Assembly: GCA_044892525.1 (NCBI GenBank)
Contig: CM097888.1
Coordinates: 90,644,001-90,708,000, forward strand
Source of the DNA: Schmidtea polychroa
Taxonomy: Eukaryota
Direction of reading: 5' to 3'
DNA: 64,000 bases
Made by a program: the position numbers and the translations under genes. The notes under the pieces were generated by a model. That model did no database searches. It was not told where the DNA came from and was given only the letters and a program-made list of their open reading frames with translations. Positions 1-35,908 of this stretch are shown here, piece after piece; position 1 is the stretch's first letter; each line of letters begins with the position of its first letter.

Positions 1-1039
1 TAGGGTCGTATGGTAGGTAATATTGGGGGATTTGAGCTCTCAATTCATTAATTTCGTCTCTTAGAGCTCGAGTGATGTTCAATTCCTCGTCGAGCAGATA
101 GGTGAGATACCTTGTCTCTTCGTCTTTCGCCTCTATCTGTTTGTCTAGGGCCTTGATTTTCTCGTCGCCCTTCCATTTTTCAATTTCTATTTCTAAGTTT
201 TTAATATTTTCGGTGTACATTTTCCTTTCGTTTTCTAATTTTCTGTTTTTTCCCGCTAGGACCATGTTTCTTTGTTCCAGCGATCCTTGTAATCCATTAA
301 GGTCTCTTTTCATCTCTTCTACCTGATTTACTAATTCCACAACCCGTCCTGCTTGTTGGGTTATCATCTCTTCCATTGCGGCATTCTCGTGCTCTCTTAT
401 GTCGCACTTCATTGCCAAATGTCGCTCAAACTCCATAGCCTTTGTTTGCCAGGTTTGGCTTCGGGCGGCGACCTTTCTCAACCTTTTCAATTCTTCCTTT
501 ATTATTAAATTCTCCTCCCATTTACCTTGTTCGCTTTCATATCCGAGTCTCATGGGCAATTCTTTCATCTCTTTTTTCATTTCTCTGTTTTGTCTTTTCC
601 ATTTTCTCGCTTCTGCCACTAAGTGCATCATTTTCCTGTCTTCTATTTGTTTTTCCGCTTCGCGCTTGGTGTTCTCATCGGTAAGTCTTTTTCTCGCTTC
701 CTGCACTAGCTGCTTTAAGTAGTGGCTGTGTGCTTCTTGGCGGGTATTTTCTAGTGACGCCCATTTTGATGCTCTTTTGCATGCTTCTGCTTCCGCTCTT
801 AAGTTGTGTATTAACCATTGGTATTGACTATTCTCATCTTCTCTAGTTTCTTCGATGTGATTTCGGGTGAGATTAGTTAGTTGGAACATTACTTTGTTCC
901 ATTTTTTATTATGTTCTCGGGGAATTTGTGTCTTGTTGACATTGGTTGGGGCTATCGCAGTTTCGGTTATTTTCTCTTGTGTCATCTCTAAATCATAGAC
1001 ATCGATTAATCTTTTTATTATGAAAAGGAATTTATTCAT
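1..1039 (-). CDS. Long coiled-coil accessory ORF (MNKFLFIIKRLIDVYDLEMTQEK...), open at the window edge
   Basis: Manual translation gives ~346 stop-free codons from ATG at 1039 to the edge. It is E/K/R-rich and heptad-like, and is absent from the ORF track because it has no stop in the window. Confidence 0.8.
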   Translation of the reverse strand, partial: MNKFLFIIKRLIDVYDLEMTQEKITETAIAPTNVNKTQIPREHNKKWNKVMFQLTNLTRNHIEETREDENSQYQWLIHNLRAEAEACKRASKWASLENTRQEAHSHYLKQLVQEARKRLTDENTKREAEKQIEDRKMMHLVAEARKWKRQNREMKKEMKELPMRLGYESEQGKWEENLIIKEELKRLRKVAARSQTWQTKAMEFERHLAMKCDIREHENAAMEEMITQQAGRVVELVNQVEEMKRDLNGLQGSLEQRNMVLAGKNRKLENERKMYTENIKNLEIEIEKWKGDEKIKALDKQIEAKDEETRYLTYLLDEELNITRALRDEINELRAQIPQYYLPYDP

Positions 1040-1177
1040 TATTTACTGTTTCTTGGGAAATTTTCGCATCATTTTTGGGTTTTCGTATTTAGGGTTTTCA
1101 TACTATTATTATATAATATTTTATTGGTTATATACACCGATATATACAGATTATTATATACAACATTATTCGATTGG

Positions 1178-2566
1178 TTACTCCGTTCTACCCTTCTCCT
1201 CTTTCCTCACGGTCATCTTGATATATATGGTATCATTTCTCGCCATATCTTCTACTCTTTGTTGTGAGATGAACGTAGGTGCTCCTGTTGCTGATCCTTC
1301 TTCGTTGAGGGGCCTCTGGTAAGCTATTTGATTCCCCGTTGTTTTGAAGCTTTGCTCATGTATACTTTGGTTGTTCATCAGAGTAATATCGATTTTTGCC
1401 TGGAACGGCCATTCTAATATTTCGTCGTATTCTCCTTTACATAACAGAAAGAAAATCGAAAAGTGCGTATCCAATCCGGTTCCGTCCCCGTTGGGATATA
1501 CCTTCATTTTCATTTTGTACCCATTTTTCCAAGAATGGAATGTAGGACTTGTTATTCTTGTCTCTTCTCCGGTTTTTGCTTTTCGTATTCTTTCTTTTAC
1601 TCCCGTTATTTTCCATATGTAGGGTGCTGTTGGGGTTATCTCATTTAGATTTATTTCCCGTATTTTCTGATGTAGCTCCTTGGCCTGATTATTACTGATT
1701 TCTGTTCGGTTTATTTGCATCTTTATGTTTGCTCGGGCTTCTTCGAACGCTTCCCTTTCTTCTAGTAGTTCTTTGACTAACACTTTCAACGATGTTATCT
1801 CTATCTCCATTTGTTTTACTTTCTCTTCGCTTTCTTGTAGCGCAGTCGACCACATTTCTGCGTGAGTTGAAGCATTTTCTACTAAATGATGTGGTAACTC
1901 ACCTCGGTGTAGTAGTTTCTGACAACCCCATCTACCTAGTACACATGTCATTCTTTTCTTTGCGCATTCCCTTAGATGCTGTGCCACCTTCATTATTTCC
2001 CCTTGGTTACATCCGTTTGGGCATTCCCCACTGAACTCTGCACATACTCTCTCCTCTTGGACATTGTGATGTTTGAGGGTGAGATTTATCCACGTATCTA
2101 TTTCTCCACAGTGTTCACATCTTTCCAATCTCTCTTCACACTGCCTTTGATGTTCTTTTTCTTCGCTTGCTCGAATGGTTTTATGGCACCTTTCACACTG
2201 GCCAATTCTGTACATACATTCTCCCATATGTTGTACTACCTTCCATATTACTCCTTTCCATTCGCATGGGGCATTTTTGCATCCCAGGTTGGTGTTTAAC
2301 ATGTCTTTCACTGCGGCTTTATCCTCGTTAGTGTCTTCTAAACTCGATATTAGTGTCTCTTTACACACCGGGCACCTCTGTGGTCTATTCTTTATTGCTT
2401 CACTGATACATTCTTTACATACTCTGCATCCACATTGCGTTTGGTGAGGTTCCTTTAACAACTTTTCACATATTCCGCACATAACATGTTTGTGTATTCT
2501 GATCGTTGTAGATTTTCGGACTTGCTCGACAATCTCTCTGAACTCTTCTCTTTGTCGTTTATCCAT
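1178..2566 (-). CDS. TRAF-family protein (RING, TRAF zinc fingers, coiled coil, MATH)
   Basis: CGIC...CGCRVCKEC...CPVC RING, CxxC/H zinc fingers, and MATH motifs WKI, GYKMKMKVYPNGDG, HFSIFF, WPF. Intronless and inside the retroelement. Confidence 0.92.
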   Translation of the reverse strand: MDKRQREEFREIVEQVRKSTTIRIHKHVMCGICEKLLKEPHQTQCGCRVCKECISEAIKNRPQRCPVCKETLISSLEDTNEDKAAVKDMLNTNLGCKNAPCEWKGVIWKVVQHMGECMYRIGQCERCHKTIRASEEKEHQRQCEERLERCEHCGEIDTWINLTLKHHNVQEERVCAEFSGECPNGCNQGEIMKVAQHLRECAKKRMTCVLGRWGCQKLLHRGELPHHLVENASTHAEMWSTALQESEEKVKQMEIEITSLKVLVKELLEEREAFEEARANIKMQINRTEISNNQAKELHQKIREINLNEITPTAPYIWKITGVKERIRKAKTGEETRITSPTFHSWKNGYKMKMKVYPNGDGTGLDTHFSIFFLLCKGEYDEILEWPFQAKIDITLMNNQSIHEQSFKTTGNQIAYQRPLNEEGSATGAPTFISQQRVEDMARNDTIYIKMTVRKEEKGRTE

Positions 2567-2651
2567 TCTATAATTATATGTACAAATAGTTCTTATCGAT
2601 ACAGGTTCGATATTTTATTTACAATTATTTACATTTTAAGCTAGGTTTGGT

Positions 2652-3035
2652 TTAGGGTTCGGAAGAGTCGGCTTCGTGCCCGCTCTCCTCTCTATTCATT
2701 AGCCATTCCGACCAGTCTTCTATTTCTGTCTGTTCTGCTTCCTCCCTCATTCGGTCTATTTCAATTTCCTGTCGACGGCTATATTGGGTTATCCTCTCTA
2801 TCTCTCTTTGCATTTGTTCGATTTTTAACCTCTGGTCTTCAATTATCTTCAAATAACTAAATCCTCTGTTCATACTCTCGATCAGGTTTCTGTGCATCGT
2901 CAGTCCTTGTTCTTGCAAATTGGACACTAATTGTGCTAATACGGCACATTGTTGCTTCCATAATTCTTCAGTTACTGTATTGTGGTTCATTTCGTTATTT
3001 CCTTGATCCATTCCTAATTTATATACACTTTTCAA
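2652..3035 (-). CDS. Small coiled-coil accessory protein with acidic tail (first ATG near 3011)
   Basis: Intact ORF co-oriented with its neighbours, bounded by short AT-rich spacers. No recognisable family. Confidence 0.65.
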   Translation of the reverse strand: MKSVYKLGMDQGNNEMNHNTVTEELWKQQCAVLAQLVSNLQEQGLTMHRNLIESMNRGFSYLKIIEDQRLKIEQMQREIERITQYSRRQEIEIDRMREEAEQTEIEDWSEWLMNREESGHEADSSEP

Positions 3036-3171
3036 CTCTTATGTAAATTTAATTTTATTTTATGATTCCCGTTATTGTATAATATTGATACCGCGCTTAT
3101 ATAGAGATATGGTACTGTTATATACATAAGATATACTTACTTTTTACAATTATATACAGTCATATTCCTTT

Positions 3172-4700
3172 CTATATACGTGAGTTTGGAGGGCGCTGAA
3201 CGTTCCAGGCCTCCACCCACTGTCCTTGTTTGATATCACTTGGTCGTTTCACTCGATGTTGGAAGTTTCTGATTCGGGTCATTTCTAGTTCTCCGCGATG
3301 TCGTTTATCTTTAATTATTTTTATTGTTCCCCCCGTTATGATTAGGAATGCCCCTGTTATTATTATCCCACTGATCCACATCATCTGCTTCACGCTTATA
3401 CTCTCTGGTTTTTCCTTGTTTGTTAATGTTGATATCGCTTCTGTACTTTTCTCGTTTCCTCTTTTGCCATTTCCTTTCATCATTTCCCGTATTCTTGCTA
3501 TTTCCTCGTTCATACCCTCCTTTGCCATCTTTTGTATTTTTTCCATCTCTTCCTCCGAAACATAGTTGTCCTGAGCTTCCTCACCAGTTTTCTTGTGCTT
3601 TCCTCCTTCGTTCTTTTCGTCGTGGTTTTTTCTTTTCTTTCCTCTTTTCCCCGGGTATCGTCGGCATTCTCTTTTTGATTCAATCCTCCAGATACAAACC
3701 GTGTATTCTTTCGGCGGCTGCTGCTGCGTCACATATTGATGGCATCTCTCACCTGGTCCTAATCTTGAAATACAGACTTTGTGCTCTTTTCTAGGTTGGA
3801 TCTGCGTTATTACTACTTCACCACCTTTTCCTAGGTGTACCTCTTTTCCTTTGACGTTCGTTATTCTCTTCCCGTCTCGATTTCTCACATCCCGGCTGAG
3901 CCCCCAAAAATCATGTTGGGGTCACACCTCGGCTGACCATTCTACCATGTTGGCGGGTCTAAGGGTTGATTGTCCATCTCGAATAAAAGGTGCCACCGAT
4001 TTGTCAACCTGGAGTGAAACCCCACATAACTTTCTTCCAACATAGTGCCCGTGAATCACTTCACGTTGGTACTGCACTATGCAGGCGAGACGCCAGCAAG
4101 CAGGTGAGCTTCTGCCTTAAAACTACTCCTTGCTGAGGCTTCGACTTCCCATTCACGACTGCCGATAGAAGGGCTTACGTCCATTTCCTTACACAACCAC
4201 CTATCAGGATTCGCTGAATGCAAATTGGGAAATTCTCACTAGATCTTGCGGGTTCTCTACTCAACCCACTTAATTAAAGTCTAATTATTCATGAACGAAA
4301 ACGTGTAAGACAACAAGATTTATTAATTTCAACGTTATGACACAAGGATTCAGCTGTACACTTTACTAATGTTTGTCGAAAGAAGAGAAAACATCATAAT
4401 CAACATAGATCGGATCCTTGTTCCTCATCCTGACCGCCACTGGGGTTTTATTGTTTCTCCCATTCAGTGTCGGCGAATAATTCGTCGAGGTTGAAAAACT
4501 CGGAAGCGTTCTCTTCCCACCTTGATTTCGGTATGCTTCTTGTATTCTTACTTCTGTTATTGGTTCTGTGTCCTCATTTATCAGTACTAATTTCTGATAC
4601 GCTCTAGACATGCATCTTCCTAGTATGCACTTTTCCTTTAAGTCCCATTCTTCCTTTAAATCCCACTGCTGCTCTTGTGCTTGCTTTCTCTTTTCTTGTT
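3172..4700 (-). pseudogene. Single-pass membrane protein ORF split by a 639-bp insertion and 5'-truncated by deletion
   Basis: Removing 3885-4523 plus one GAAATC copy rejoins ...IQEAYRN|RDGKRITNVKG in frame. There is a hydrophobic segment MWISGIIITGAFLIITGG near the C-terminus. Confidence 0.8.
3885..4523 (-). mobile_element. Inserted copy of LTR 3' end + PBS (strong-stop-like cDNA) with 6-bp target duplication
   Basis: 3889-4523 matches 16530-17164 (635 bp, one mismatch seen, 4140 vs 16781). gatttc is present at both 3879-3884 and 4524-4529. Confidence 0.88.
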
Positions 4701-7700
4701 TTTGCAATTCCTGCATAATTTTTGATAAATTTGCGATAGTATCCGCATAATCCTAGAAATTCCTGAACTTGGGTGACAGTTTTCGGTGCTGGACATGTTT
4801 TTATTTTCTCAATGTTTCTTGGATCTGGCTCCTTTCCTTTAGCTGACACTATGTGTCCTAAAAACGTGACTTTTTCCTTTGCCCAATCGCATTTTGATGG
4901 TTTGAGTTTGAGTTTCCACTGTCTTAATCTAATAAATACGTTTCGGATATCTTCTAGATGTTGTTCAAATGTCGCTGAATAGATTAGTAAATCATCAATA
5001 TATACCATACATTGTTTGATTCCATGGGTGACAAAGTTCATACACCGTTGAAATGATGCTGGTGCGTTAGTCAGTCCAAATGGCATTTTCCTGAATTGAT
5101 ATAGATCTCGTCCCAACGTGAAAGCTGTTTTCTCTTTGTCCTCATCTTTGACTTTAATCTGCCAGTATCCACTTTTTAGATCTAAAGAAGTAAAATATGC
5201 TGCCCCTTGCAACATCAATAACATCTCATTGATGTCTGGCAATGGATAGGTATCTCTCTTGGTCACTGCGTTTAACTTCCGATAATCGATACAGAATCGT
5301 TGGGTGCCATCTTTCTTTTTCACCATGACCACTGGGAATTGCCAGGGTGAGCAACTTGGTTCGATTACTTTTGCGTCTAGCATCTTTTGTACTTCTGTTT
5401 CGGCTATTTCTTTCTGCATTTCTGCTAGCTTGTATGGTCTCAATGCAATTGGGGTTTCGTCTATGAGTGGTATTGCATGTAAGGTAACATCACATGTACC
5501 CAAGTCTAAATCTGAGATGGCGAATATATCTTTATATTCTACCAACAATCGGTGCAATTTTTTCTTTTCGTCATTCGTCAACAACATACTATCTATTGTC
5601 CATAATTCATCATCTTTGATCATCTCGTTGGTCACTTTCGGTAATTCTATGTCCATCATTGGGGTCAATCTTCCCAATTTTTCGTTCTCATAAATGATTT
5701 TGTCTTCCTCTTCGAAATTCGTGATGTTGAGCGGTATCACTCCTTCTTGGTTTATTGTGATTATTTCTCTTGCGAGTGGTAATTCTCGTCGCTTTTCAAA
5801 TGACTTGCTTGGTTCAAAGATAACTTCTCCTTCCATACCCGTATCCACTTTTATCTGACAAATCATCTGTGATTTTGCTGGTACTATTATTTTTTCTGGA
5901 CATCTGATGACTGAATTCATTTTGCATATTCTACCGGTTTTGTCTTTTAAGCACATGGTTGTTAAGTCAATTACGACTTCCTTTAACAATTCTGGCATCA
6001 AATCCGTTCCGATTATGCATGGTACGCTAAGTTTTGGTATTACTGCCAAATACGTTTCAATTTCGTTGTCCTGGTATCTCAATGTAGTCCACCATCTTCC
6101 GACCACGTCCACTGTTTCTTTACTACATGCTATGATGTGAATTGTTGTTGATTCGATATCCTTCCAGTGTTTACTGGGGATTTGATTAATCGCTATCGCT
6201 GATACATTAGCTCCGGTGTCTATCATAGCATTGGTTTCTTTACCATTGATTTGAATCATAACTGTTACTGCTGGACCTCCAGGTAAACTCATCGCTGCTA
6301 TTGTTCTTACGTCATCTGCTTGATCTACACTTTTGGTACGTCGTGTTGGCATATAATGCATACCGGGTTGACTCGGTAATTGCGGATACATATTTTGTGT
6401 CATGGTCAAAGCTGTTTGTGGTCCCACGATATCCGGTGGTATATAGCTTCCATTGGCGATCGAGGTGTTTGTCTTTTCCTTTTCCCAATATGGTGCCGTT
6501 TCCATTGGTTTTTCGTTTGGGTTTCTGTTTGGATAAAGACATTTATCGTTCCCGTTATCATCGTCGTCACTATCGCTGTTAGATGATTGGCTTCTAAATC
6601 GGTCCAAGAATTTTGGCTTATTCTTTTTCAATTGTCGTCTTGTTGCTTCATCGTACATTACTTTCCGGAATCGTCTGCCTACTTCCTCGTCGGTTCCTTT
6701 AATCTTTGTTAATATTTTAATCAATCGCTTTATCCGATGAATGTCTTTTGAGTGGCCATGTAATACCATGGTCTTAGCTAAAAATGGTAAGAAACCTACT
6801 ATCATTTTCCAATTAACTTTCTTTTCCCGCTTGTATATATCGAAACAAGCTAACATTTGTGTTAGTATTACTCTGACTATCTGAATTATGAGTATGATCC
6901 CTAATATCCCGGCCATCATTTGTCCAAAAACTAAGAATCTTCCCCACATTGCTTTCATCATGTTTGACGTAGCTTGTTGAAAATGGTCTGGCGATAATAG
7001 CAGCTCGTAATTCGGGCCTGATTGATAGTTTGTGCCCCCAGTTATTGTTACCATATTAGACAAAATGGATTCTCGTCTGGCTGGGAAGAGTACGTTAAGT
7101 CGTGCTGTTTCTAGATCTTCTGGGGAATACATACCACCGTTTGACACGTCTATAGGTTTGAAATCCAGCTCTGTGGCGAGTTCTATTAATCCAAATTTCT
7201 TGGGCTCCTCGGATATGGTTTTTCCCGGTAACATCATCCATTTCCCATCGGGCCTTTCATATAAAGGTCCGTATGCATTAGAACAGTTAAAGAGATTTGG
7301 GTAGAAACCCACTGGATTCATAATTCTAGTGACTGGTTGGACGAATCGATTTTGTCCTTTATAACGGATTTCTAATTCATTTGCACATCTCTTTTCGGGT
7401 AGTATGGATTTTTCTGGCATTCGTGCATACGTCTTGGTACACTGGTATGTGTACATCACTTCTCCTACCATTCTACCAAAGTGTCCATCTGGTAATGGGA
7501 GTGATGGCATCGTGTTATCTGGGTGCGTTATCGCAATAGCTAGCTTTGTTTTCAATATTTCTTTATTCAATGAACAATCGTTTTGTATTAGATCGTAATA
7601 TACTTTTTGCAAGGTCGTTTGTCCGCGATGAAATAGAAAATCCATTTTATTATTTGCATATAAGTATAGTTTTACGTCCTCCGTTGCTATCTTTCCCACT

Positions 7701-10700
7701 GCTCTATCGATTATTTGTCTCGACATATAGATACCTGCGTAGTTGGTTTTATATACTATACTGTCACATTTGGTGGTTTCTTTCTCTTTGATAAATCTCA
7801 TACCTAGATCTGGATCGTCTGTGATTAATGCTGTTGGTGTCTTCTGCGTTGAAAGTCTCTTTTCTCTGGGAGATGGTGGCATTGGTTTTCCATTTCGCAT
7901 TCTCACTCTGTCGTTTCCATCCTCGTCGTTCTCGTTCTCATATATTTCTCCTTTTACTTCATTGAACAAAGCACTTTTTAACAGTTGGAGTCGGCATTTT
8001 TGGGTATTAGCTTCATAGATTATAGTTGATACTCCTGTCCTGCATACGTTTTCTGTAGCTCTACACGTTGGGTTGGTCTTCATTTGGTAATTATTTGCGT
8101 CAAATTGCGCTTCGTATTCTTTTAATTCGACCGTGTAAGACTCGATCACTACAACTCCCGATATTACCTCGCCTCGGATCGTATACGTACCTCCGTTACA
8201 TGACCCATCTGATGATTTTACTTTTCCGGATACGTAAACACTTTCGGTTTTAATCATTCCAGTTTGTCCGTGAATTGTCACTCCGTTATGCATTTTTAGC
8301 GCTCCGGTTCTAAATAGCTCTTTACAATCCTCTCGTTGTATTGATACGATTTCTTTATCCAGACCGGGTAGTATAAGAGTCGAATACGAATATTGTCCAC
8401 AGTAATATGCGAGTACCTTTTTTGATACTACGCATTCCCTTGCTTGCGTTCTGATGAAATCTGATTCTTGATATACATGGTAAGTAACTTTTGTTCTCAC
8501 GATGTCCAATTTGTTGGGTGAGGCTTGTCTGCATTCTTCTATGTCTCTCAATGAGTATTTATCTCTCATTATCATGTTATCACAATCGTAGATGGTGAAA
8601 CCTGTTGCTCCACTTGTGCACAACATCCATATCATCATAGTCATCATTAACGAATTTATTGATGCTTTTCTGCTTGCGGGATCTTTCATCGGTAGTTCCC
8701 ATTCTAGTTCATTTAACAGTTTTTTCAATCTAACTTGCATCGACCTTTCTTGCTCATTTTTCCGTGGCGCTTGTATCAGTCTTTTCCATCCTCCTGCACG
8801 AATAATGTGTGGTTCAATAGTATTCTCTATGATTGAAACGGTCATTTCTACATGATTTGCAAACTGTTTATTTGGTATTTTCCTCGCAGCTAGTCCCATC
8901 AAATTATACATCAAATAAGTGATTACCACTAGGTGATGCTCGTCATCATTTGCATTTGTCGTGAGCTGCTCAATCACTCTCTTTGTTTCGTCCCAATCCG
9001 TTTTGGTGGTTTTCGTTTTCTCTTTGATTAACTTTGGGATTATCCCCGAAATGGTGTGCCATAATTGTCTAGCTTCCGTACTGGCTACTTTCCGTTGCCA
9101 CAGACGTCTAAGTTGTGGGTTTGTTATTATTAACATATCTTTTAACAATTCTCGTATCCATTTTTCTCCTCTTTCGATCGTTGGTTGGGCTTCCTTTAGA
9201 TCCCATACTATTTTATCCAATTTTTCTAATCGAACTTGCCCTTGTTCTTGCTTTAATTGTTCTTTGGTTTTGAACTCAGACTTTTCTCCTTGTTTCTTGG
9301 GTCTTCCTTTTGCCCGTTTTTCCATCATCGTTCCTGCTTCTCTGGTATTTTCGTAATTCGGATTTCTTTCGTTATCCGTTCTGGGTAATGAGCTATCGTT
9401 ATTTCTTAGCCACTCATTCCATTCGTCTATTATTTTGTCGGTTTGACTTTCTGGTGTTACTTTCGTTGGTTCTCTTTGCTTCTGGAATTGTTCATCCGTT
9501 TCGGTTTCCGTAGTATTGTCGATGATTTCTTCGATGTTCAGTTTCGTTGGTTGTTGATAACTCGTTGATGGCTGGTTATTAGTCCACATTTCGGCTCCTG
9601 TCGGCCATCTCACTAATAGCGGTGATCTTTCTCCTGGTTCATCGTCACTATCTTCCAGGATTATCTCTTCAACTTCTTCAGTTTCATTAGATTTACTTGG
9701 TGCTTTGTTCGGACTTGGAGTACTCAAACTGCCTTTTGTTGGTTTAATAATTTTACTTTTCCTTTTTAACGGTTTTCCCAACGTTTCTGCCATTGTTAAT
9801 ACATTTGTCTCTTCCAATCTCATGGGGGTTATCCCGACGTCTGCATTATCGTCTAGTGATTTTCCGAACAGTTGCAGATGGAATGGAGTTTCATATGCTA
9901 ATTTCTTTTTTAATTCTCTAATTTTTGTTGTTGGATGCACCTCTAGTTCCTCGATGCTCTTGTCTGGATACTTGATTCGGATGTGATACCTCTCCTGGGT
10001 GTCTTGTGCCCATTCCTGATTTCTCCATTTTCGAATAATTTGTTCTAGCTGTTCTGGATACCATTCATTATATTGCCGGTATTCCTCTATTGCCTTTGCC
10101 ATTCCTCTCAGATTGTGGATGTCCTCTGATGTCTTTAAGATGATGTTAGCCAACGCTACTACTTGGCGTCTTTGATTTTTCGCTCCCATTGCTAAGATAT
10201 CGCCTAATTGTTTATATCTTTCTTTCTCTTCTCGTTCTCTTGCTTCCGTCGCTTCCTCGCCGTCCATATCAGCATATTCACGTTCCTTTTTCCTCATTGC
10301 ATGAATATGTCTCGCTTCATTTTCGCTTTCTGATGTGACATCCGTCTCGCCTTCGTCATCTGATGTCTGTTCCCTTGCTTCCTCTTCATATTTTGGAGGT
10401 TCCTCTTCTTCTTCCTCCGATTCACTTTCTGTCTCACCAATGTCTGTTTCCACGAAGGTTCCTTTCCGGATTTCCCATTCCTTACTTTCTGCATTCCACA
10501 CTCTTTCCCATGGGGTTCGTCTGCAGGATCTGGTGCTTAATTTCGTGATTTTTCCTTGTAGTTCTTTTTCTTTTAACCATTGTTGGTGGATTTTAATTAT
10601 TTCCGTAGATTTTTGATATAACGTTTTCATCCGGTCTCGTATTTCTTTTTGATAGGTTACATCTCTTGTTCGAAATTCATCCATTGGTACTATCCTGATT

Positions 10701-13450
10701 ATCTGGTGATTGTCCCACATACCCATTTCGCTTAACGAGGTGTCGTCCTCCGCTCGTAATATTATCTTATCGTACATCATGACTACATCATCCACCATAC
10801 CATCACTACTTTCGCTACGTACCTTTTCCGTTATCTCTTGGTTTATTTTTGATACCAAGTCATCCACTGTACTCTGATTGCTCATTTTTATTCGTCGTTT
10901 TTCTTCGTTCGGTAACCATATGGTTATTTCCAACCTCTGTGGCTGGGTTTCTTTTAACCTTCCATATTTGTGGATCAAATTTATGGTTCTCCAATCACTC
11001 ATTCGGAGCATTTCTGTATCTCGCAACCGGCTCATTAGTTCGTACATGGCTGGGGCTCGTCTGGTGATGAGTAAATCCCAGTTGTCTTCTACTTGTTCTT
11101 GAATTTGTTTGATCAGCTTATCCAGGTTTCGTCTCAGAGTACATTGTTTTATTTGTTCTAATTTCAATTTGATATTAAAATCATATTCGGCCTTGGCATC
11201 TTTAGCCCAATCGTAAAGGTTGGCTGGTTGTTTTTCTTTATGCAACTTCAGTATTTGCGTTTCCCCTGGCCATATTAGTGCATCTACTAAGTGCATATCT
11301 GGTTTGATCTGTTCTCCTTGGTATTGATACAGATATTCTTTCTTTCTCGAACTTCCCAAATGCTCTCGTATCCAATCGAAAAGTTCGTCGGTGACTGTAT
11401 TTTTTATCCACATTCTTTCAAGTCCTCTACTCGTTCCGATTTTTATTACATACCGCGTGGTATCGGCCTGCTTCATTTTTTCCATATAATTTTTTATAAT
11501 TGATTTTTCCTCGTTTGGTATTAAATCTTTCTCGTTTCTTTCCAATTTCATCACTTTTTGCACGAATCGCCTGAATGGTATTACGTCAATGAACTCTTGG
11601 TTCCTCACTACTACTGGGAGTATTTCCGCTACTTGTTTTATCGCTTCCTCCTTCCCTTTTCTCAACTTTATTTCGATATCCTCGTCTTCACTTTCGCTGG
11701 TTATCTCGCTTTCGCCTTCTTCCTCTTTGATTTCCCCTTTTGGAGGTTCGCTTATTTCATTCAGCTGTAGTATTTCTCCACCCAAACTACTTACATAGTC
11801 TTCTTCCTCGTCTGACGATGCTACATCTTTTGTCCTTTTCATCATATTGATTTGCAAGTTTCTCATCCTTGGTACTCTCTTTAGTTTCTTTCTTTCGAAT
11901 ATCGTTGTTTCTTCTGATTCTAATTCCTGTAGCATTTGGTGGTTTAGTTGACTGGTTTGTTCCTTGCTCTTGTTATTTTCATCTTCTGTCTCGGCTTTCG
12001 CTTTATTATGTTCTTTTTCGATTTTATCTTTTATCTTTTTCCAGAATATTTTCTGAATTCTCTGGTTTCCTTTTAAAATCGTGGTTGAATTCTCTGTTTT
12101 CATTTCCGTTGTTATTTCTTTTACCTTTTCTGGTTCAGTCATGGGTACTACCCTTGGGCTTTTCCCGTAATTGTAGCAATACTGGCTCTTCATGTCTTTT
12201 ACTAACTTCATCATATTTATTCGCAATGGTTGTTCTTGTCGTTGTTGGTTGCGTTCTTGTTTTATCCTCTCTTCCTCGGCCTGTAGCCTTTGCCATTCTT
12301 GTACATGTTGATGCACTTCATAATTGTTGAGATTTTCGGTACTCCTCATCATACGTATATTCTGGGTTTGTTGTGGTGCTGATTCTTGTCTTGGTCTCAT
12401 CATTTGTTGCATCATCTGTTTCATCTGCGAAATTTCCTGCATAACGTTCATTTGTTTTCCTTCGTTAGGGTTACTTTGTCGTTGCGGATTCGCTATATAA
12501 TTATTATTTCGCTGTGGTGGTCGTTGTTGTTGGCCCCTTTCTCGGCAATCTCTGGAGATGTGACCTGGCTGACCACAGTCAAAACAGCCTCGCAATTGGC
12601 ATACATTTTCGGTATGTCCACGCCGTCCGCAACGATTACAATTTGAATTTCTATAACAATCTCTGTCCCAGTGTCCTGGTTTACCGCATGTTCGGCACTG
12701 CTTGTTATCGTTCATATTTCGTCGATTATTGAAATTGTTCTCATTATTCGGGTTGTTACGATTACCATTATTCCCGTTTGATCGTCCTTGTGGTGGTTTG
12801 AAAATTTGGTGCGCTCCTGGTATAAATTGATTCATTTTCGGTTCTTGATTGTTGTTATCTCCGTTATCCGCTTTCGCTATTGCTGTCGCTATCCTTCCCT
12901 CCTCTTGCATAATATTCATTTGAGCTGGAAGGTGGAGCTCGCATCTTGTAGCCCAATCTATGGCTTCCTCTAATGTTTTGCACATTTGACAACCTACTGA
13001 GGCTCTTACTTCTTCTCGGCGTAATCCCTCTATGAAATAACCGATCAGATTTTCTTCGGGTAATTTTCCATTCATTGCTTTCTTCGCTAATCTCCGCAAT
13101 TCACTGGCATATAATGTTATCGATTCGTTTGCTCTTTGTTTCCTATTTGCTAGTTCGCCCAACGCCTGGTTGATTGGCTTACTGGCTCCGAAGGTTTTCT
13201 TCAGGAATGTTTTAATATCTTCCCACTTTTCTAATTTCGTGTCTCTCTCTTTAGCTTCTAAATATACCTCTAATGCACTATCGCACAAAAACAACGGCAT
13301 CCTTTTACTAATGGCTTCGGGTGTCCATCCACACACAGTGATATAAACTTCAAAATTAGTTATGAACGATGCTAGCTTGTTTGCGTTTCCGTTGAAAGGT
13401 TCTCCTCTGAACTTCTCTTTATACTCGTCGGTTTTTACGACATTCGTCAT
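4604..13450 (-). CDS. 2948-aa polyprotein Gag-Ubl x3-Bcl2-like-glycoprotein-PR-RT (RT truncated near 4700; last ~32 aa are junction read-through)
   Basis: Single ORF. CCHC x3 at ~12545-12700, DTGA at 6209-6220, YIDD at 4991-5002. RT similarity stops at KNYAGIAK. Confidence 0.93.
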   Translation of the reverse strand: MTNVVKTDEYKEKFRGEPFNGNANKLASFITNFEVYITVCGWTPEAISKRMPLFLCDSALEVYLEAKERDTKLEKWEDIKTFLKKTFGASKPINQALGELANRKQRANESITLYASELRRLAKKAMNGKLPEENLIGYFIEGLRREEVRASVGCQMCKTLEEAIDWATRCELHLPAQMNIMQEEGRIATAIAKADNGDNNNQEPKMNQFIPGAHQIFKPPQGRSNGNNGNRNNPNNENNFNNRRNMNDNKQCRTCGKPGHWDRDCYRNSNCNRCGRRGHTENVCQLRGCFDCGQPGHISRDCRERGQQQRPPQRNNNYIANPQRQSNPNEGKQMNVMQEISQMKQMMQQMMRPRQESAPQQTQNIRMMRSTENLNNYEVHQHVQEWQRLQAEEERIKQERNQQRQEQPLRINMMKLVKDMKSQYCYNYGKSPRVVPMTEPEKVKEITTEMKTENSTTILKGNQRIQKIFWKKIKDKIEKEHNKAKAETEDENNKSKEQTSQLNHQMLQELESEETTIFERKKLKRVPRMRNLQINMMKRTKDVASSDEEEDYVSSLGGEILQLNEISEPPKGEIKEEEGESEITSESEDEDIEIKLRKGKEEAIKQVAEILPVVVRNQEFIDVIPFRRFVQKVMKLERNEKDLIPNEEKSIIKNYMEKMKQADTTRYVIKIGTSRGLERMWIKNTVTDELFDWIREHLGSSRKKEYLYQYQGEQIKPDMHLVDALIWPGETQILKLHKEKQPANLYDWAKDAKAEYDFNIKLKLEQIKQCTLRRNLDKLIKQIQEQVEDNWDLLITRRAPAMYELMSRLRDTEMLRMSDWRTINLIHKYGRLKETQPQRLEITIWLPNEEKRRIKMSNQSTVDDLVSKINQEITEKVRSESSDGMVDDVVMMYDKIILRAEDDTSLSEMGMWDNHQIIRIVPMDEFRTRDVTYQKEIRDRMKTLYQKSTEIIKIHQQWLKEKELQGKITKLSTRSCRRTPWERVWNAESKEWEIRKGTFVETDIGETESESEEEEEEPPKYEEEAREQTSDDEGETDVTSESENEARHIHAMRKKEREYADMDGEEATEAREREEKERYKQLGDILAMGAKNQRRQVVALANIILKTSEDIHNLRGMAKAIEEYRQYNEWYPEQLEQIIRKWRNQEWAQDTQERYHIRIKYPDKSIEELEVHPTTKIRELKKKLAYETPFHLQLFGKSLDDNADVGITPMRLEETNVLTMAETLGKPLKRKSKIIKPTKGSLSTPSPNKAPSKSNETEEVEEIILEDSDDEPGERSPLLVRWPTGAEMWTNNQPSTSYQQPTKLNIEEIIDNTTETETDEQFQKQREPTKVTPESQTDKIIDEWNEWLRNNDSSLPRTDNERNPNYENTREAGTMMEKRAKGRPKKQGEKSEFKTKEQLKQEQGQVRLEKLDKIVWDLKEAQPTIERGEKWIRELLKDMLIITNPQLRRLWQRKVASTEARQLWHTISGIIPKLIKEKTKTTKTDWDETKRVIEQLTTNANDDEHHLVVITYLMYNLMGLAARKIPNKQFANHVEMTVSIIENTIEPHIIRAGGWKRLIQAPRKNEQERSMQVRLKKLLNELEWELPMKDPASRKASINSLMMTMMIWMLCTSGATGFTIYDCDNMIMRDKYSLRDIEECRQASPNKLDIVRTKVTYHVYQESDFIRTQARECVVSKKVLAYYCGQYSYSTLILPGLDKEIVSIQREDCKELFRTGALKMHNGVTIHGQTGMIKTESVYVSGKVKSSDGSCNGGTYTIRGEVISGVVVIESYTVELKEYEAQFDANNYQMKTNPTCRATENVCRTGVSTIIYEANTQKCRLQLLKSALFNEVKGEIYENENDEDGNDRVRMRNGKPMPPSPREKRLSTQKTPTALITDDPDLGMRFIKEKETTKCDSIVYKTNYAGIYMSRQIIDRAVGKIATEDVKLYLYANNKMDFLFHRGQTTLQKVYYDLIQNDCSLNKEILKTKLAIAITHPDNTMPSLPLPDGHFGRMVGEVMYTYQCTKTYARMPEKSILPEKRCANELEIRYKGQNRFVQPVTRIMNPVGFYPNLFNCSNAYGPLYERPDGKWMMLPGKTISEEPKKFGLIELATELDFKPIDVSNGGMYSPEDLETARLNVLFPARRESILSNMVTITGGTNYQSGPNYELLLSPDHFQQATSNMMKAMWGRFLVFGQMMAGILGIILIIQIVRVILTQMLACFDIYKREKKVNWKMIVGFLPFLAKTMVLHGHSKDIHRIKRLIKILTKIKGTDEEVGRRFRKVMYDEATRRQLKKNKPKFLDRFRSQSSNSDSDDDDNGNDKCLYPNRNPNEKPMETAPYWEKEKTNTSIANGSYIPPDIVGPQTALTMTQNMYPQLPSQPGMHYMPTRRTKSVDQADDVRTIAAMSLPGGPAVTVMIQINGKETNAMIDTGANVSAIAINQIPSKHWKDIESTTIHIIACSKETVDVVGRWWTTLRYQDNEIETYLAVIPKLSVPCIIGTDLMPELLKEVVIDLTTMCLKDKTGRICKMNSVIRCPEKIIVPAKSQMICQIKVDTGMEGEVIFEPSKSFEKRRELPLAREIITINQEGVIPLNITNFEEEDKIIYENEKLGRLTPMMDIELPKVTNEMIKDDELWTIDSMLLTNDEKKKLHRLLVEYKDIFAISDLDLGTCDVTLHAIPLIDETPIALRPYKLAEMQKEIAETEVQKMLDAKVIEPSCSPWQFPVVMVKKKDGTQRFCIDYRKLNAVTKRDTYPLPDINEMLLMLQGAAYFTSLDLKSGYWQIKVKDEDKEKTAFTLGRDLYQFRKMPFGLTNAPASFQRCMNFVTHGIKQCMVYIDDLLIYSATFEQHLEDIRNVFIRLRQWKLKLKPSKCDWAKEKVTFLGHIVSAKGKEPDPRNIEKIKTCPAPKTVTQVQEFLGLCGYYRKFIKNYAGIAKTRKEKASTRAAVGFKGRMGLKGKVHTRKMHV
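4700..6290 (-). other. Aspartic protease and reverse transcriptase
   Basis: AMIDTGANVS; PWQFPVVMVKKKDG, RFCIDYRKLN, LDLKSGYWQI, MPFGLTNAPASFQR, VYIDDLLIYS. Confidence 0.95.
6760..8660 (-). other. Chuvirus-like envelope glycoprotein with internal signal peptide and C-terminal TM
   Basis: Hydrophobic MMTMMIWMLCTSGATG then FTIYDC...SL...EC, YCG.YS, C..L..TG, DGSC.GG.Y and WGRF..FG..MAGILG TM. This cysteine/motif spacing is typical of chuviral G proteins as I recall them. Confidence 0.8.
8770..9200 (-). other. Bcl-2-like helical domain
   Basis: Ends in a BH2-like motif IENTIEPHIIRAGGWKRL (compare L..WI...GGW..F). The BH1 region is divergent (no NWGR). Confidence 0.6.
9785..11460 (-). other. Three dispersed ubiquitin-like (beta-grasp) domains in the polyprotein
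   Basis: Three ~75-85-aa blocks (~11460-11240, ~10935-10685, ~9990-9785) with a Ubl pattern (alternating hydrophobic strands, TV/IxxLxxKI helix, L.y/f.G..L.D...L). Pattern recognition only. Confidence 0.6.
12540..13450 (-). other. Gag capsid + three CCHC zinc knuckles
   Basis: CRTCGKPGHWDRDC, CNRCGRRGHTENVC and CFDCGQPGHISRDC, preceded by a retrotransposon-Gag-like region (QRANESITLYASELRRLAKKA). Confidence 0.9.
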
Positions 13451-14716: not shown

Positions 14717-15123
14717 TTACGACTGGCTGGCACTATTCAACAGCTCAATCTTCCTCCTTCCTGATCGGTTGGACTTTTCACAACTCGACCTTACGACTGG
14801 CTGGCACTATTCAACAGCTCAATCTTCTTCCTTCTGATCGGTTGGACTATTCAACAACTCGATCTTACGACTGGCTGGCACTATTCAACAGCTCAATCTT
14901 CCTCCTTCCTGATCGGTTGGACTTTTCACAACTCGACCTTACGACTGGCTGGCACTATTCAACAGCTCAATCTTCTTCCTTCTGATCGGTTGGACTATTC
15001 AACAACTCGATCTTACGACTGGCTGGCACTATTCAACAGCTCAATCTTCCTCCTTCCTGATCGGTTGGACTTTTCACAACTCGACCTTACGACTGGCTGG
15101 CACTATTCAACAGCTCAATCTTC
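14717..15123. repeat. 74-bp tandem array, 5.5 units, alternating A/B variants
   Basis: ttacgactggctggcactattcaacagctcaatcttc recurs at 14717, 14791, 14865, 14939, 15013 and 15087. Confidence 0.97.
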
Positions 15124-15495
15124 AATATTCCTCGCTCTGCATGCTTCTATTTCTCTTTTCTTCTTTTACTCTAGTTTACCATTTTCTCTGTCTACTTTTA
15201 ATTTGTCGACTTAATCTTTACCGCTTGGGAGTGTTTCCCCTTTCCCCCCTTGCTCAAAACGCACGACGATCGCGATGATCCATTTCTACCTTGGCATGGT
15301 GATCAGTCATGTCGCAAAAACTTCTCATCATATGCGATGGTACCCCGCCCTACGCTTCTTACTTGGGTTGATCAGTTATCCCCTCCCAACGGGTTCTTGC
15401 AATAAGACGTACCGCTCGAAGGTGGCTCGGTTTGTACCCCTGCAGTCTATATTGGGACTAATTCCACGTTATTCAACCCTCTCTTCATTTGATTC

Positions 15496-15726: not shown

Positions 15727-16212
15727 TCATTCGCCATAATAGACCATATGGGTCTCTTTTATTTCATATTTGCACATCGTGCATCTTTTTAGGTCTTTTA
15801 CACACTCTTCACAGTGACTGAGGTGTCCACACGGCAAGAATAATACGCGAATAGGACGGAGTTTGCAGGCTATACAAGTTCGTAATTGGTTAACTTTTTC
15901 CTGTATTTTTTGTTCGATTGCATCTGGTATTGTATTTAGTGAGTCTTTTAGACGCTGATAATCTAGATTTAATGTTGGGTGGTTCAATCTCTCTTGATAC
16001 CACTGATATACGGTTTCGGGGTTTATTTTTCCATCTGGGCGACTTAGGCCTGTGGCTAATATCATATGATTAGGTACGACTGGTGTTTGTCCGATTGCTT
16101 GCAGTAATATCGCGTTGATTTTTTCTCTTTTATGCGTCAGTGTTGTTAGGGAGTCGTTTTCTATATCGATAAACTTGAGCAGTTGTTGCATTTGGTTCGC
16201 GAATTCTGTCAT
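15727..16212 (-). CDS. C-terminal C3HC4 RING protein (IAP/MDM2-type RING), no BIR domain seen
   Basis: CIAC...IRVLFLPCGHLSHCEEC...LKRCTMCKYEI at the extreme C-terminus. First ORF after the PBS. Confidence 0.85.
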   Translation of the reverse strand: MTEFANQMQQLLKFIDIENDSLTTLTHKREKINAILLQAIGQTPVVPNHMILATGLSRPDGKINPETVYQWYQERLNHPTLNLDYQRLKDSLNTIPDAIEQKIQEKVNQLRTCIACKLRPIRVLFLPCGHLSHCEECVKDLKRCTMCKYEIKETHMVYYGE

Positions 16213-16529: not shown

Positions 16530-16547
16530 ATCCCGGCTGAGCCCCCA
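16530..16547 (-). promoter_or_regulatory. Primer-binding site complementary to tRNA-Pro 3' end
   Basis: TGGGGGCTCAGCCGGGAT vs canonical Pro PBS TGGGGGCTCGTCCGGGAT (16/18), located 7 nt after the LTR-terminal AACA. Confidence 0.88.
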
Positions 16548-17088
16548 AAAATCATGTTGGGGTCACACCTCGGCTGACCATTCTACCATGTTGGCGGGTC
16601 TAAGGGTTGATTGTCCATCTCGAATAAAAGGTGCCACCGATTTGTCAACCTGGAGTGAAACCCCACATAACTTTCTTCCAACATAGTGCCCGTGAATCAC
16701 TTCACGTTGGTACTGCACTATGCAGGCGAGACGCCAGCAAGCAGGTGAGCTTCTGCCTTAAAACTACTCCTTGCTGAGGCCTCGACTTCCCATTCACGAC
16801 TGCCGATAGAAGGGCTTACGTCCATTTCCTTACACAACCACCTATCAGGATTCGCTGAATGCAAATTGGGAAATTCTCACTAGATCTTGCGGGTTCTCTA
16901 CTCAACCCACTTAATTAAAGTCTAATTATTCATGAACGAAAACGTGTAAGACAACAAGATTTATTAATTTCAACGTTATGACACAAGGATTCAGCTGTAC
17001 ACTTTACTAATGTTTGTCGAAAGAAGAGAAAACATCATAATCAACATAGATCGGATCCTTGTTCCTCATCCTGACCGCCACTGGGGTT

Positions 17089-17877
17089 TTATTGTTTCTC
17101 CCATTCAGTGTCGGCGAATAATTCGTCGAGGTTGAAAAACTCGGAAGCGTTCTCTTCCCACCTTACGCCAGCGGCTGATATGATTCGCGCTGAGGGTCCC
17201 GTTGTTAGGTCGATGGACACGTGAGAGTTGCCACCGTTGGTTGAGTCCTCTATTGATGGGATGTTTGGCTTTGCAGTAGCGCGCTCGCGCTGTCTCTTCT
17301 TGCGCTCTGCACGAGAGAGTTGTTTGCGCTTGGGTTTGCTTGAAGATGCCACTTGCAGACGGGTGACTGATACAGATGGACTAGCAGTGGGGGGCTTACT
17401 GGTACCCGTGATGACAACATCTGGACGCTTGGGGGACCATTCGGTTTCGACGCAGTCTCGGCACGGTCTCTTGAACGGTGGAGATGGATTCGAGGAAAGG
17501 TTGTGATGAGGCGGAAAGATGTCATCGGCCTCTCGGATGGGAATCTGCACGATTTTTCGGGTTGTAGCCGCCTGCACGTAAACCTTATGCAGTGCCTCGG
17601 ATTGTTCTCTGATTAGACTTCTTTGGGCACGGCTCTCAGATATTAGCGCGTCCCGGCAATGCTCGCTACGATCGAGCTTCTTTTGGATCTCTTTCATCCG
17701 AGCGGGACTAAACCATGTCCCTTCCAGCTCGTCTATCTTCCTCTTGTAACGTCCAATCTGAGTTTGTAGGTCCTTTATCACCGTATTTTTATCCGCGCAC
17801 GAGAAGCACGGCCGTAATGCTGATTTAGTGGTTGGTAGCATGCTTGCTATAAATAATACTAATGAAATGGGGAACAT
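17089..17877 (-). CDS. LTR-encoded 262-aa protein of unknown function (CxxC, coiled coil, basic arm, acidic tail)
   Basis: Intact ORF clearly paralogous to 39165-39923 (LRPC.SCADKN, EGTWFSP..MKE, EHCRD.L..ESR.QR, QSEALHKVY). Confidence 0.85.
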   Translation of the reverse strand: MFPISLVLFIASMLPTTKSALRPCFSCADKNTVIKDLQTQIGRYKRKIDELEGTWFSPARMKEIQKKLDRSEHCRDALISESRAQRSLIREQSEALHKVYVQAATTRKIVQIPIREADDIFPPHHNLSSNPSPPFKRPCRDCVETEWSPKRPDVVITGTSKPPTASPSVSVTRLQVASSSKPKRKQLSRAERKKRQRERATAKPNIPSIEDSTNGGNSHVSIDLTTGPSARIISAAGVRWEENASEFFNLDELFADTEWEKQ

Positions 17878-17959
17878 ACGATTTTAGAATAAATTAGATA
17901 CGACCCGCGTCCATTCGTGGATACTTGACCGTCGAAAAGAAGGAAAACTTATTCTACAA

Positions 17960-19545
17960 TCCGGTTTTACTACGGATCTTAGTTGTTAAAACAGTTTATT
18001 TAACCAAATGCCATCGGTTTGACGCATGTTATGAACTTTGACTATCTATTGATCTAACTGTATGCATGAGGGACGTAATAATTGATAGGGTGTAAATATA
18101 ATATTGGTGAAACAATATAATAATGCTTTAGTAGAGGGACATTATAGTATGCGACCAAACCTTGCTATATGTTATCTATTTTAATTTATTAAAAACAAAT
18201 TACTATCGCTCTCAACATATTTTTGATTCGAAATTTGTTATTGGAAGTGCACTTTTAATTCGGTAGTGAATGTGATTATCTATGTTGTCTACCATTGGTC
18301 TGAAAATATGTGATGAGTTTACATCAGCCATTACTTTAACACCCTCATGGAAAATCCCATCGGTCATAACATATCCAAATTTACGGATACTGCTGTCGAC
18401 TGGTTGATTACATTATCGACCTATTGTGAATGTCACGTGTCGCGACTACTATGTATGCTAGTCTGATATTCTGTGCTCTCACCGCATGGATTCGTGTATG
18501 GCTACTATCTTATCTCACTCACTTGGTGTATGCCATTTTCACGGTGATTTTATCGATCCTGCTGTCGTATGATTTTCTCTGCACAGTGATTTATTTGAGT
18601 TATGATTTATGCTACCGCCAGTTCTCATCGCGGAATTTTACCCTTATCAACTTGTGTGAATGATCACCATCGTTTGGAAATTTATTGGATCTTTTCAGTG
18701 ATCGTCGAGGGAATAATTCTACCAAATACTGGAGCATATTACTACTCTCGTCATTCTACTCGGATTTTCCTATTCAGATGTAATGCCGTCTCGATGAAAC
18801 CTGTCCTTTTCTCTCAGGTTCAATAATTTGGATATATACAGTGACGACCTGGCTCTTATTGTAGAAATAAATGTTATTAATTAAATTTGGTGATATTTTA
18901 CCTGTTTATAATTTTTGAAATAACTAAGTCCATAAAAACTTTCTGATTATAATACTAGAGAGGTTTTCGTAGAATCTCGCATTTTATAGTTTCGAGTTAG
19001 TTAAAGTTTTTAGAATACTTTCGTAACCTGACATACAATCTGGACAGGTTAGATGACATTGGGTCTATGATAATGGAATTTCATACGAATTTAGTTCTAC
19101 TGAGTCCGGCAAATAGACGTTGTCGCAATTAATTTGATAAAACCATGTTTCCAGATGAAGCGTACTATGAGATGTTGTTATTTTTGACGAAGTTCACTAA
19201 ATCGTGGTCTGGATCTCTTTTTTCAATAGGGGTAAGACTTACGAAAAACGACTTGACGAAAGAAGAATGCGACGCCCTCAATCACTGTGCAAATCCTTGA
19301 AAATCCCTTCATTCGTATGACTATCTTTGTGAAATCATTGTCTACCGGTTATTTTTTATCCATACCCCATTGTGATAGTTTAGTCGCATCTTCAGCGATA
19401 GGACCCGTGAAGAAGCCTTCACATTCCGGCCCAATCTAGCTGCGCGATTGAAATACTCCATGTCCACCGGCTGAGCTCCCGAAGGCACCTCATACCATGA
19501 CATGGAGTATCTCAACTCCACGTTACTCGTTAAATGAAAATTCAT
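17960..19545 (-). pseudogene. Possible decayed upstream ORF within the LTR
   Basis: Coding-like stretches interrupted by stops and frameshifts; no family recognised. A similar slot exists at ~40450-41800. Confidence 0.3.
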
Positions 19546-31980: not shown

Positions 31981-31992
31981 TATAAGTTTTTT
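31950..31992 (-). promoter_or_regulatory. Predicted -1 ribosomal frameshift signal (A AAA AAC + pseudoknot)
   Basis: The heptamer is in Gag phase and -1 gives the Pol frame. After a 6-nt spacer come TGCC/GGCA and CCACTTCT/AGAGGTGG stems. Confidence 0.75.
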
Positions 31993-34721: not shown

Positions 34722-35908
34722 GTCCGATTATACAATTTCAATAAGCTGTTATTAATACGATCAGGATAAGTATATTATTTCAAAATCAAAATCCAAATAT
34801 AGCGATCAAGATTGAAAACGAATTATAATTCTCAAAAAACAACTACAATTGTAATATTTTAAAACACCCAGTTTATTCATTTAACTAAAACAAAAGAGAT
34901 TTAAATCAATTGTGTATAAATTTTAGAAAAGTAATTAAAACTGGAACAACTGAATTGGCAGTAATTAATATAGAAATAATTTTCTAGGTAAGCAATCAAA
35001 TGTAGGAAAGCGAAAATTATTACTAGAATTTCATGAAAGATTGCGGTATTAAAATGAAGTAAAATAAGAACAGACTAAATAACTGGTTTAGATTTATTAA
35101 TTTCTTCTTTTATATCTAATTCATTGATAGGGAGCGACCAATAGTTGACATCGATATAATCCTCCAAAGCATAATCAATACCCAAATTTGCCGAGTATTG
35201 ATTGGAATTGAAAGAATTGGTCGGCGACATCGAAAAGATTTCCATAACTCGTTGACCACTTTTGACAGTATTCGTTTTTCAATGAACCTTCAGGATTGAC
35301 AGTAAATATCCGTTTCGGATCTATTCCGACAGCTTGGTAAGCAATGACGTCGTTGATACTGTTACCGAAACCGGCATACAGAGGATGGACACAATCGGAA
35401 AAAAGTGATCGAACATCATTTAGACATTGGATTTTGAAATATTCCGGTTTCTTTTCAATGACTTCTCGATGCAATGATTGGAAAAGCGATGTTGGCGAAA
35501 GAAGAATCGGGTCTTCTGGAAGTTTATCGGAAAACTCCTGGACGATATCCTGGAGAAACGTTCGAGTAATTCCTGCTTGTCCGACAGCTCGTGCGGATAA
35601 ATAAATGAATCGATAGTTGTTTTGAAAGATTTTGTTTTACAGTTTCACTACTCCAGCTTGCGTCCAATCACGGCCTGGTATTGGTAGAACATGGCATCGA
35701 ATTTTCTTTACTCGTCTGAGATTGATCAATAGAGCCTGATTGATAAGTAGAAGTATTAGCTGATCGCACGAATTTTGATTGACTATAATTGTGCTCTGAT
35801 TGGTCCTTATTCGTTGGTGACCGCGCATTTATATATATAATATAATATAATATAATATAGTATAATAGGTATATAGATATTGTGAAGGCCGTGTAACGGC
35901 TCACTACA
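34566..35908 (-). repeat. 5' LTR (1343 bp)
   Basis: Direct repeat of 27103-28445, followed after 1 nt by the PBS. Confidence 0.95.
35175..35703 (-). pseudogene. Captured lipin fragment, copy in the 5' LTR
   Basis: Same sequence as 27712-28240. Confidence 0.88.

Follow-up and report, generated by a model that had tools for sequence, protein, structure and literature searches.

The spacers between the reading frames of a giant planarian retroelement raise the question of whether the UGUAHAUA motifs that they carry are sites at which a host RNA-binding protein would act on the element's RNA. The locus lies at the left end of a 64,000-nt stretch of Schmidtea polychroa DNA (GCA_044892525.1, contig CM097888.1, positions 90,644,001 to 90,708,000 of the forward strand), referred to here as the window. 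A preliminary description of this DNA had reported nine UGUAHAUA motifs, three in each of three spacers between accessory open reading frames (ORFs), and had proposed that they place the accessory cistrons under host Pumilio/Nanos control. All nine were confirmed at the coordinates listed below, and all lie on the minus strand, which is the sense strand of the element. That description had recognised the motif itself; it had missed the fixed distance of the motif from the stop codon, as well as the rival reading in which the motif serves poly(A) site choice through CFIm.

A Burro-type element and its reading frames

The element that carries the spacers is a Burro-type giant Ty3/gypsy LTR element, as seen from its multi-kb LTRs, its single polyprotein with env between gag and pol, and its MATH, RING and ankyrin cargo. 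When traced through the window and its left flank, it extends on the minus strand from position 20399 of the window to approximately 5.7 kb left of base 1. Its features within the window are as follows.

16555..20399, minus strand: 5' LTR of 3845 bp with TG...CA ends; the partner LTR, left of the window, is 99.9% identical
15727..16212, minus strand: upstream RING ORF, with a pyrimidine-tract AG directly before its start
4604..13450, minus strand: polyprotein with Gag, zinc knuckles, fusion glycoprotein, protease and RT, stopping after RT in the window copy
3889..4524, minus strand: duplicate, 635 nt, of the LTR end and primer-binding region, private to the window copy
3172..3884, minus strand: C-terminal tail of the giant polyprotein (apparent 124-aa ORF at 3172-3546)
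2652..3011, minus strand: accessory ORF of 119 aa without a Pfam match
1178..2566, minus strand: accessory ORF of 462 aa, TRAF-like (RING plus MATH)
2..1039, minus strand: accessory ORF rich in charged residues, running on left of the window

Five accessory ORFs follow the polyprotein (119 aa, TRAF, 369, 250 and 222 aa), and the TRAF ORF was found at 95-100% identity in at least 92 copies. For the charged-residue ORF, the start held in common with the sister family described below is probably the ATG at 985. The residues that end the apparent 124-aa ORF also end the 4617-aa frame of another copy, and RNase H, integrase and ankyrin repeats follow in the polyprotein of another copy. Because the window copy is without the RNase H/integrase part and carries the 635-nt duplicate, which is present in none of 49 other copies, the tail of its polyprotein looks like a separate ORF. 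Spacer 1 therefore comes after the polyprotein and not after an accessory ORF, so the reported arrangement of three sites in each of three accessory spacers needs amendment; the count itself holds for the window family only. The rearrangement (3889-4740) is likely to be the product of a template switch during the element's own reverse transcription, since the RNase H/integrase part is gone and the duplicate is private, yet the LTRs are 99.9% identical and the copy has a 4-bp target duplication, TTAT.

Several minor features of the element were also recorded. The leader between the RING ORF and gag holds a 74-nt tandem repeat in about six copies (14717-15160). The primer-binding-like stretch at 16530-16554, which we take to resemble a tRNA-Pro site, begins 7 nt past the CA end of the LTR, farther than usual. 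There is no polypurine tract before the 3' LTR. All three families considered here have instead kept, just upstream of that LTR, a GGG.CCCC.GAGTG motif together with a short inverted repeat, and these may substitute for the usual plus-strand primer. Within the LTR is an ORF of 262 aa with a basic tail (17089-17877), which has a sister-family relative at 39165-39923 and a further fragment at 21433-21493.

Placement and conservation of the UGUAHAUA sites

Two further families were used for comparison with the window family. The sister family, to which an LTR ORF at another place in the window led, shares 69% identity in the TRAF protein with the window family; of nine stretches fetched beside sister-family LTR matches, five had no full cassette and were left out. 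The distant family has a MATH domain in its polyprotein and a BIR-RING ORF, and its TRAF protein is 30% identical. It was first met through a motif search (15 loci fetched around twin-motif matches gave one locus of this family, one TRAF fragment of a related family and 13 unrelated loci) and was for this reason sampled again by a motif-blind BIR search, in which 18 of 20 fetched loci belonged to the distant family and two were not Burro. One distant-family stretch that had been taken in the wrong orientation was left out. The sites of the three spacers in the window, with their fate in these families, are listed here.

3151..3158, minus strand: spacer 1, UGUAUAUA nearest the polyprotein stop (13 nt behind it), an offset shared by 8 of 8 sister-family matches
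3141..3148, minus strand: spacer 1, second site AUUGUAAAAA with a relaxed 3' half, additional to the nine; kept in the sister family
3119..3126, minus strand: spacer 1, middle UGUAUAUA; window family only (20 of 20 copies), no 8-mer in the sister family
3020..3027, minus strand: spacer 1, ATG-proximal UGUAUAUA, 8 nt before the start and adjoining AG; variable in the sister family, no 8-mer in the distant family
2626..2633, minus strand: spacer 2, stop-proximal UGUAAAUA, 18 nt behind the stop; kept in 9 of 9 sister-family and 17 of 17 distant-family matches
2616..2623, minus strand: spacer 2, second site AAUUGUAAAUA, overlapping AAUAAA
2577..2584, minus strand: spacer 2, ATG-proximal UGUACAUA, ahead of YAG; UGUAUAUA in the sister family
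1155..1162, minus strand: spacer 3, stop-proximal UGUAUAUA, 15 nt behind the TRAF stop; kept in 9 of 9 sister-family and 19 of 20 distant-family matches
1141..1148, minus strand: spacer 3, second site UGUAUAUA; UGUAAAUA in the sister family
1129..1136, minus strand: spacer 3, third site; mostly lost in the sister family

Spacers 4 and 5, left of the window, hold one further site each, and the last spacer holds none. The nine sites fall within 383 nt of the three spacers, for which 5000 dinucleotide shuffles gave a mean of 0.44 and a maximum of 5, with none reaching 9. Only four one-mismatch neighbours occur in the same three spacers, and none has G at position 5. Across the whole window TGTAHATA was found 27 times against 11.8 expected, an enrichment of about 2.3-fold, which is far too small to account for the spacer cluster. 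When all spacers were taken together, the window, sister and distant families showed 11 sites in 686 nt, 10 in 703 nt and 7 in 684 nt, respectively; shuffle means were 0.56-0.70, and the observed count was reached in 0 of 3000 shuffles for each family. The spacers of the three families contain 28 sense matches and a single antisense one, and the 13.9-kb polyprotein frame has no 8-mer in the two families examined. At position 5 the 28 sites have A in 16 cases, U in 10 and C in 2. No RNA fold above shuffles was detected in the three spacers (z of 1.59, -0.76 and 0.28, spacer 1 being folded without its first 10 nt).

The most regular property of the sites is how far they lie from the stop codon: of the 16 internal spacers in the three families, 13 have their first site 13 to 22 nt behind the stop, with offsets of 13, 18, 15 and 22 nt in the window family, 13, 18, 15 and 18 nt in the sister family, and 16, 17, 16, 16 and 17 nt in the distant family. 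This rule is followed by 4 of 5, 4 of 5 and 5 of 5 motif-bearing spacers, respectively, and random placement would give P values of 0.002, 0.0016 and 1e-5 for a 13-22 interval that was picked post hoc. The distance from the first site to the next ATG varies between 25 and 195 nt and is not fixed. No stop-proximal site was found in spacer 4 of the window or sister family. The HAUA extension is present in 13 of 14 first sites, and a second UGUA, often with a relaxed 3' half, follows the first after 9-14 nt in 12 of 14 spacers. Sites of the ATG-proximal kind, to which 3 of the 11 in the window family belong, stand directly before AG and are represented by UGUA cores only in the distant family; they likely form a weaker, younger class tied to the acceptor region.

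Conservation across copies was among the checks that the preliminary description had named, and the motif was found to be kept both within the window family and in the two further families. Near-identical copies (n = 29) retain 258 of 261 sites, and copies at 85-98% identity (n = 20) retain 178 of 180 and have gained one; within-family conservation of this kind is weak evidence by itself, since the spacers vary little overall. Between families, the exact 8-mer is the first site of five distant-family spacers in 17/17, 17/17, 19/20, 16/17 and 19/19 matches, and the stop-proximal site of spacer 1 lies at +13 to +16 in 17 of 17 matches. Spacer 4 of this family has UGUAUAAA, not an exact 8-mer, at +17 in 19 of 19 matches. 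A compact relative, of which 13 loci were examined, keeps a UGUA at +20 without the 8-mer (UGUAUAAA in 8 and UGUAGAAA in 2 of the 10 copies showing that stop).

Variants common to at least two copies affect 5 of 196 core columns and 263 of 1693 other spacer columns in the three families (Fisher p = 9e-9, columns and copies not being independent). The earlier statement that only the degenerate position varies agrees with this: core columns rarely change, and position 5 swaps among U, A and C at matching sites, with the exception of a G in one sister-family match. As judged from these comparisons the motif is under selection; spacers and copies are akin, so the tests overstate their independence. 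Two other features of the spacers were observed. A block in spacer 1, TATAAGCGCGGTATCAATATTATA (3060-3105), is near-unchanged in the sister family and better kept than the adjoining middle 8-mer, and spacer 4 holds a TATAAG-GC motif similar to it. Spacer 4 also has a variable-length A-tract behind the stop in all three families, which in the two closer families occupies the place of the missing stop-proximal site.

Candidate Pumilio sites and rival explanations

On balance, we consider it probable that the UGUAHAUA motifs are Pumilio sites that would act on translated RNA and damp the mRNA of the upstream gene. From miRNA studies, terminating ribosomes are known to sweep roughly 15 nt of RNA past a stop codon, and the anchoring of the sites to the stop therefore suggests that their partner encounters RNA under translation. 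Conservation of the whole 8-mer, with only its fifth base free, argues for Pumilio rather than CFIm, for which UGUA suffices. The host genome encodes a Pumilio whose eight recognition triplets (SRQ, NYQ, CRQ, NHQ, CRQ, NYQ, SNE and NYQ) are those of what we take to be the canonical code of fly and human Pumilio. For nanos, a single zf-nanos match exceeds the cut-off, and this match is interrupted by a stop. The proposal of Pumilio/Nanos wiring thus draws support from the conserved sense-strand motif, the canonical Pumilio and the nanos gene, and would have to be narrowed at the ATG-proximal 8-mers, which are not kept in the distant family. A Nanos-type context, which had been noted for some of the sites, applies to a part of them, with U at -1 in 10 of 28 sites across the three families (p = 0.22), and was enriched at the second site of pairs only, where U precedes the motif at -1 in 9 of 12 cases (p = 0.001, for a split made post hoc). 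This U at second sites matches the Nanos-Pumilio pattern of an upstream A/U with a relaxed 3' half, as given in the accessible text of PMC4995099.

A plausible course of events can be proposed on the basis of site placement. Each ORF would be read from its own mRNA, probably spliced to the AG before its start, and the spacer behind the ORF would form the beginning of its 3' UTR. Pumilio would sit just past the terminating ribosome, unaided on the first site; at the second, an AUUGUA site that is often relaxed, it would bind perhaps together with Nanos. Bound Pumilio would recruit CCR4-NOT, a recruitment described in the available parts of PMC3868585 and PMC9418443, leading to a shorter tail and lower output. 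In stem and germ cells rich in Pumilio, this would curb proteins of virus-like or signalling character, namely the polyprotein, TRAF and IAP. Several observations run counter to the Pumilio reading: the compact relative and spacer 4 of the distant family are without the 8-mer, spacer 4 of the closer families has no stop-proximal site, and the twin spacing is compatible with CFIm.

A bolder extension, which we regard as doubtful, makes the stop-anchored Pumilio/Nanos code a cistron insulator. A protein would be placed behind each terminating ribosome and, in some families, also before the next start, such that downstream genes would stay silent and each gene's output would be set for as long as the sites are not spliced out by use of the acceptor; the last gene has no such site and would need none. 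The element could in addition titrate Pumilio in stem cells in the manner of NORAD, a possibility suggested by the 7-11 sites per RNA and the many young copies.

The main rival explanation is that the motifs are 3'-end signals. The twin UGUA would recruit CFIm, and nearby AAUAAA or its variants would direct cleavage of the RNA in each spacer, giving a short polyadenylated mRNA for each ORF. The late transcripts of adenovirus offer a comparison for such an arrangement. We grant this explanation an appreciable minority chance, noting that it is compatible with Pumilio binding, and it leads the alternatives because the compact relative keeps only the UGUA at +20, without its 3' half. The 9-14 nt between the twin UGUA of 12 of 14 spacers would suit a CFIm dimer, AAUAAA stands at +32/33 in spacer 2 of all three families, and the genome encodes CFIm25, with RNA-contact residues that are presumably those of the known protein. 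Twin UGUA directs CFIm-dependent site choice in mammals, but with a spacing of 1 nt (PMC10476966, accessible part).

Other properties of the spacers speak against 3'-end formation. AAUAAA is not enriched (3 observed against 3.4 expected in the three spacers), is conserved in some spacers only and overlaps just 2 of 13 first sites. The HAUA extension is unnecessary for CFIm, yet all but one of the 14 first sites have it. A U/GU-rich downstream element is missing from the internal spacers (48% A, 28% U), and only the last spacer, which has no 8-mer, is U-rich (35-43%). Cleavage in the nucleus would not explain why the distance to the stop codon is fixed, and planarian 3P-seq, in the available text of PMC5068929, found no UGUA upstream of poly(A) signals and no CFIm59/68. 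The CFIm25 gene is present in the genome in spite of this reported lack of a UGUA signal and of CFIm59/68. Two pattern searches for genomic spacer-plus-poly(A) junctions, covering some positions only, returned 0 matches. A compact-family copy ending in A24 at +51 was considered as a processed mRNA and rejected, as it has kept both LTRs and the A-run adjoins a repeat that starts with A9 elsewhere; A-tails near the LTR start were likewise set aside as poly(A) evidence in view of the A-rich DNA there.

Splicing, or another RNA-binding protein, was weighed as a further explanation, in which UGUA-rich tracts would stand in for a missing pyrimidine tract. In 14 of 16 spacers the start does have a YAG 0-5 nt ahead of it (AAG in the other two), TAG and CAG interchange between copies, and the ATG-proximal sites, which fit this explanation best, precede the AG by a few nt as 8-mers, with UGUA cores only at that place in the distant family. 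We consider it improbable for the motif as a whole: the best-conserved sites come after the upstream stop, 25-195 nt from the start, and no spliced joint onto the acceptor was found among the matches listed to contigs of presumed RNA runs, for the window and distant families. Nor did these contigs have a poly(A) end in a spacer among the matches listed (14 of 64 loose ends, distant family), although contigs cannot show ends. They bridge spacers 2, 4 and 6 of the distant family, as is in any case expected of full-length RNA. Among the runs recorded as RNA, none contained the stretch.

That the motifs are DNA elements, either TATA boxes or forkhead sites of internal promoters with one per accessory ORF, is very hard to sustain. 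GTAAATA resembles a forkhead site, and TATATAA occurs seven times in the three spacers against 1.4 expected, with five occurrences inside the motifs. All seven distant-family sites are TGTAAATA, however, which contains no TATA box, and TGTACATA is neither TATA nor forkhead; T, A and C swap at matching sites, the distance to the ATG is not fixed, and sense matches outnumber antisense ones 28 to 1. TATA boxes in particular, which the preliminary description had named as the case that would undo its proposal, were rejected as incompatible with the TGTAAATA and TGTACATA sites: TATAWAW is not kept at matching sites and has no fixed distance from the gene start. Finally, and least probable of all, an origin by slippage in AT-rich DNA, followed by copying with a young element, would account for the 2.3-fold window-wide enrichment, for a twin pattern about 2.9-fold above the reversed control genome-wide and for the common ancestry of close copies, but is largely refuted by the same offset across families with 30% protein identity and by core columns that vary far less than their neighbours.

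Relation to known systems

Pumilio response elements (PREs), viral RNAs that bear them and Burro elements are already known. The Burro/GYPSM1 gypsy-like elements of planarians, as described in the accessible part of PMC6431247, share with the present element the multi-kb LTRs, the huge polyprotein in which Gag and protease are separated by a fusion glycoprotein, the ankyrin repeats, the MATH/TRAF and RING cargo and the accessory ORFs. Burro1 in that account resembles the distant family in the MATH domain of the polyprotein and the BIR-RING ORF, and differs from the window family, whose cassette has no BIR ORF. The same part of the account is silent on spacer motifs and on the regulation of accessory ORFs.

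The PRE and NRE of Drosophila hunchback and CycB (PMC5855632 and PMC4995099, both in part) have in common with our sites the UGUAHAUA core, the pairing and a second AUUGUA with a relaxed 3' half. In contrast, the candidate sites reported here belong to a polycistronic mobile element, in which they would recur with each cistron and keep a set distance from its stop. Conserved PREs that bind host Pumilio on viral or non-coding RNA are described in the available text on herpesvirus saimiri HSUR1/2 (PMC12687793), SARS-CoV-2 (PMC12441121) and NORAD, with 15 PREs (10.1101/2025.01.03.631239). According to these sources, as far as available, HSURs are non-coding decoys, as is NORAD, and for SARS-CoV-2 the sites had no effect on progeny; stop-anchored sites in retroelements do not appear in the accessible HSUR and SARS-CoV-2 accounts. 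The CFIm poly(A) enhancer is similar in having two adjoining UGUA upstream of a possible AAUAAA, but its motif, in the part of PMC10476966 available, is UGUANUGUA, whereas here the cores are 9-14 nt apart, the first has HAUA and no U/GU-rich element follows. The literature searched yielded no account of Pumilio sites in Burro elements or of stop anchoring in any retroelement; it stopped short of the Burro1 paper in Dev Cell (2026) and the genome paper of 2018, either of which could contain one.

Burro1 is reported to support planarian stem cells through its BIR-RING protein (as cited in the accessible part of PMC13465017), and planarian Pumilio reportedly is essential for these same cells (as cited in that of PMC5855632). 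A conserved Pumilio code on the element's RNA, if true, would link these two roles, and would mean that a retroelement has built host translational control into every cistron. In an animal amenable to RNAi this would offer a cheap test of how polycistronic retroelements set their protein ratios and restrain themselves in stem cells. Titration of Pumilio, if true, would tie transposon load to stem-cell fate.

Two other features of the window were noted. A second, ordinary gypsy element with identical 1343-bp LTRs lies at 27103-35908, and its pol stop has no 8-mer behind it. An intronless 542-aa ORF at 51712-53340 resembles, by eye, a G-protein-coupled receptor of the amine or acetylcholine type.
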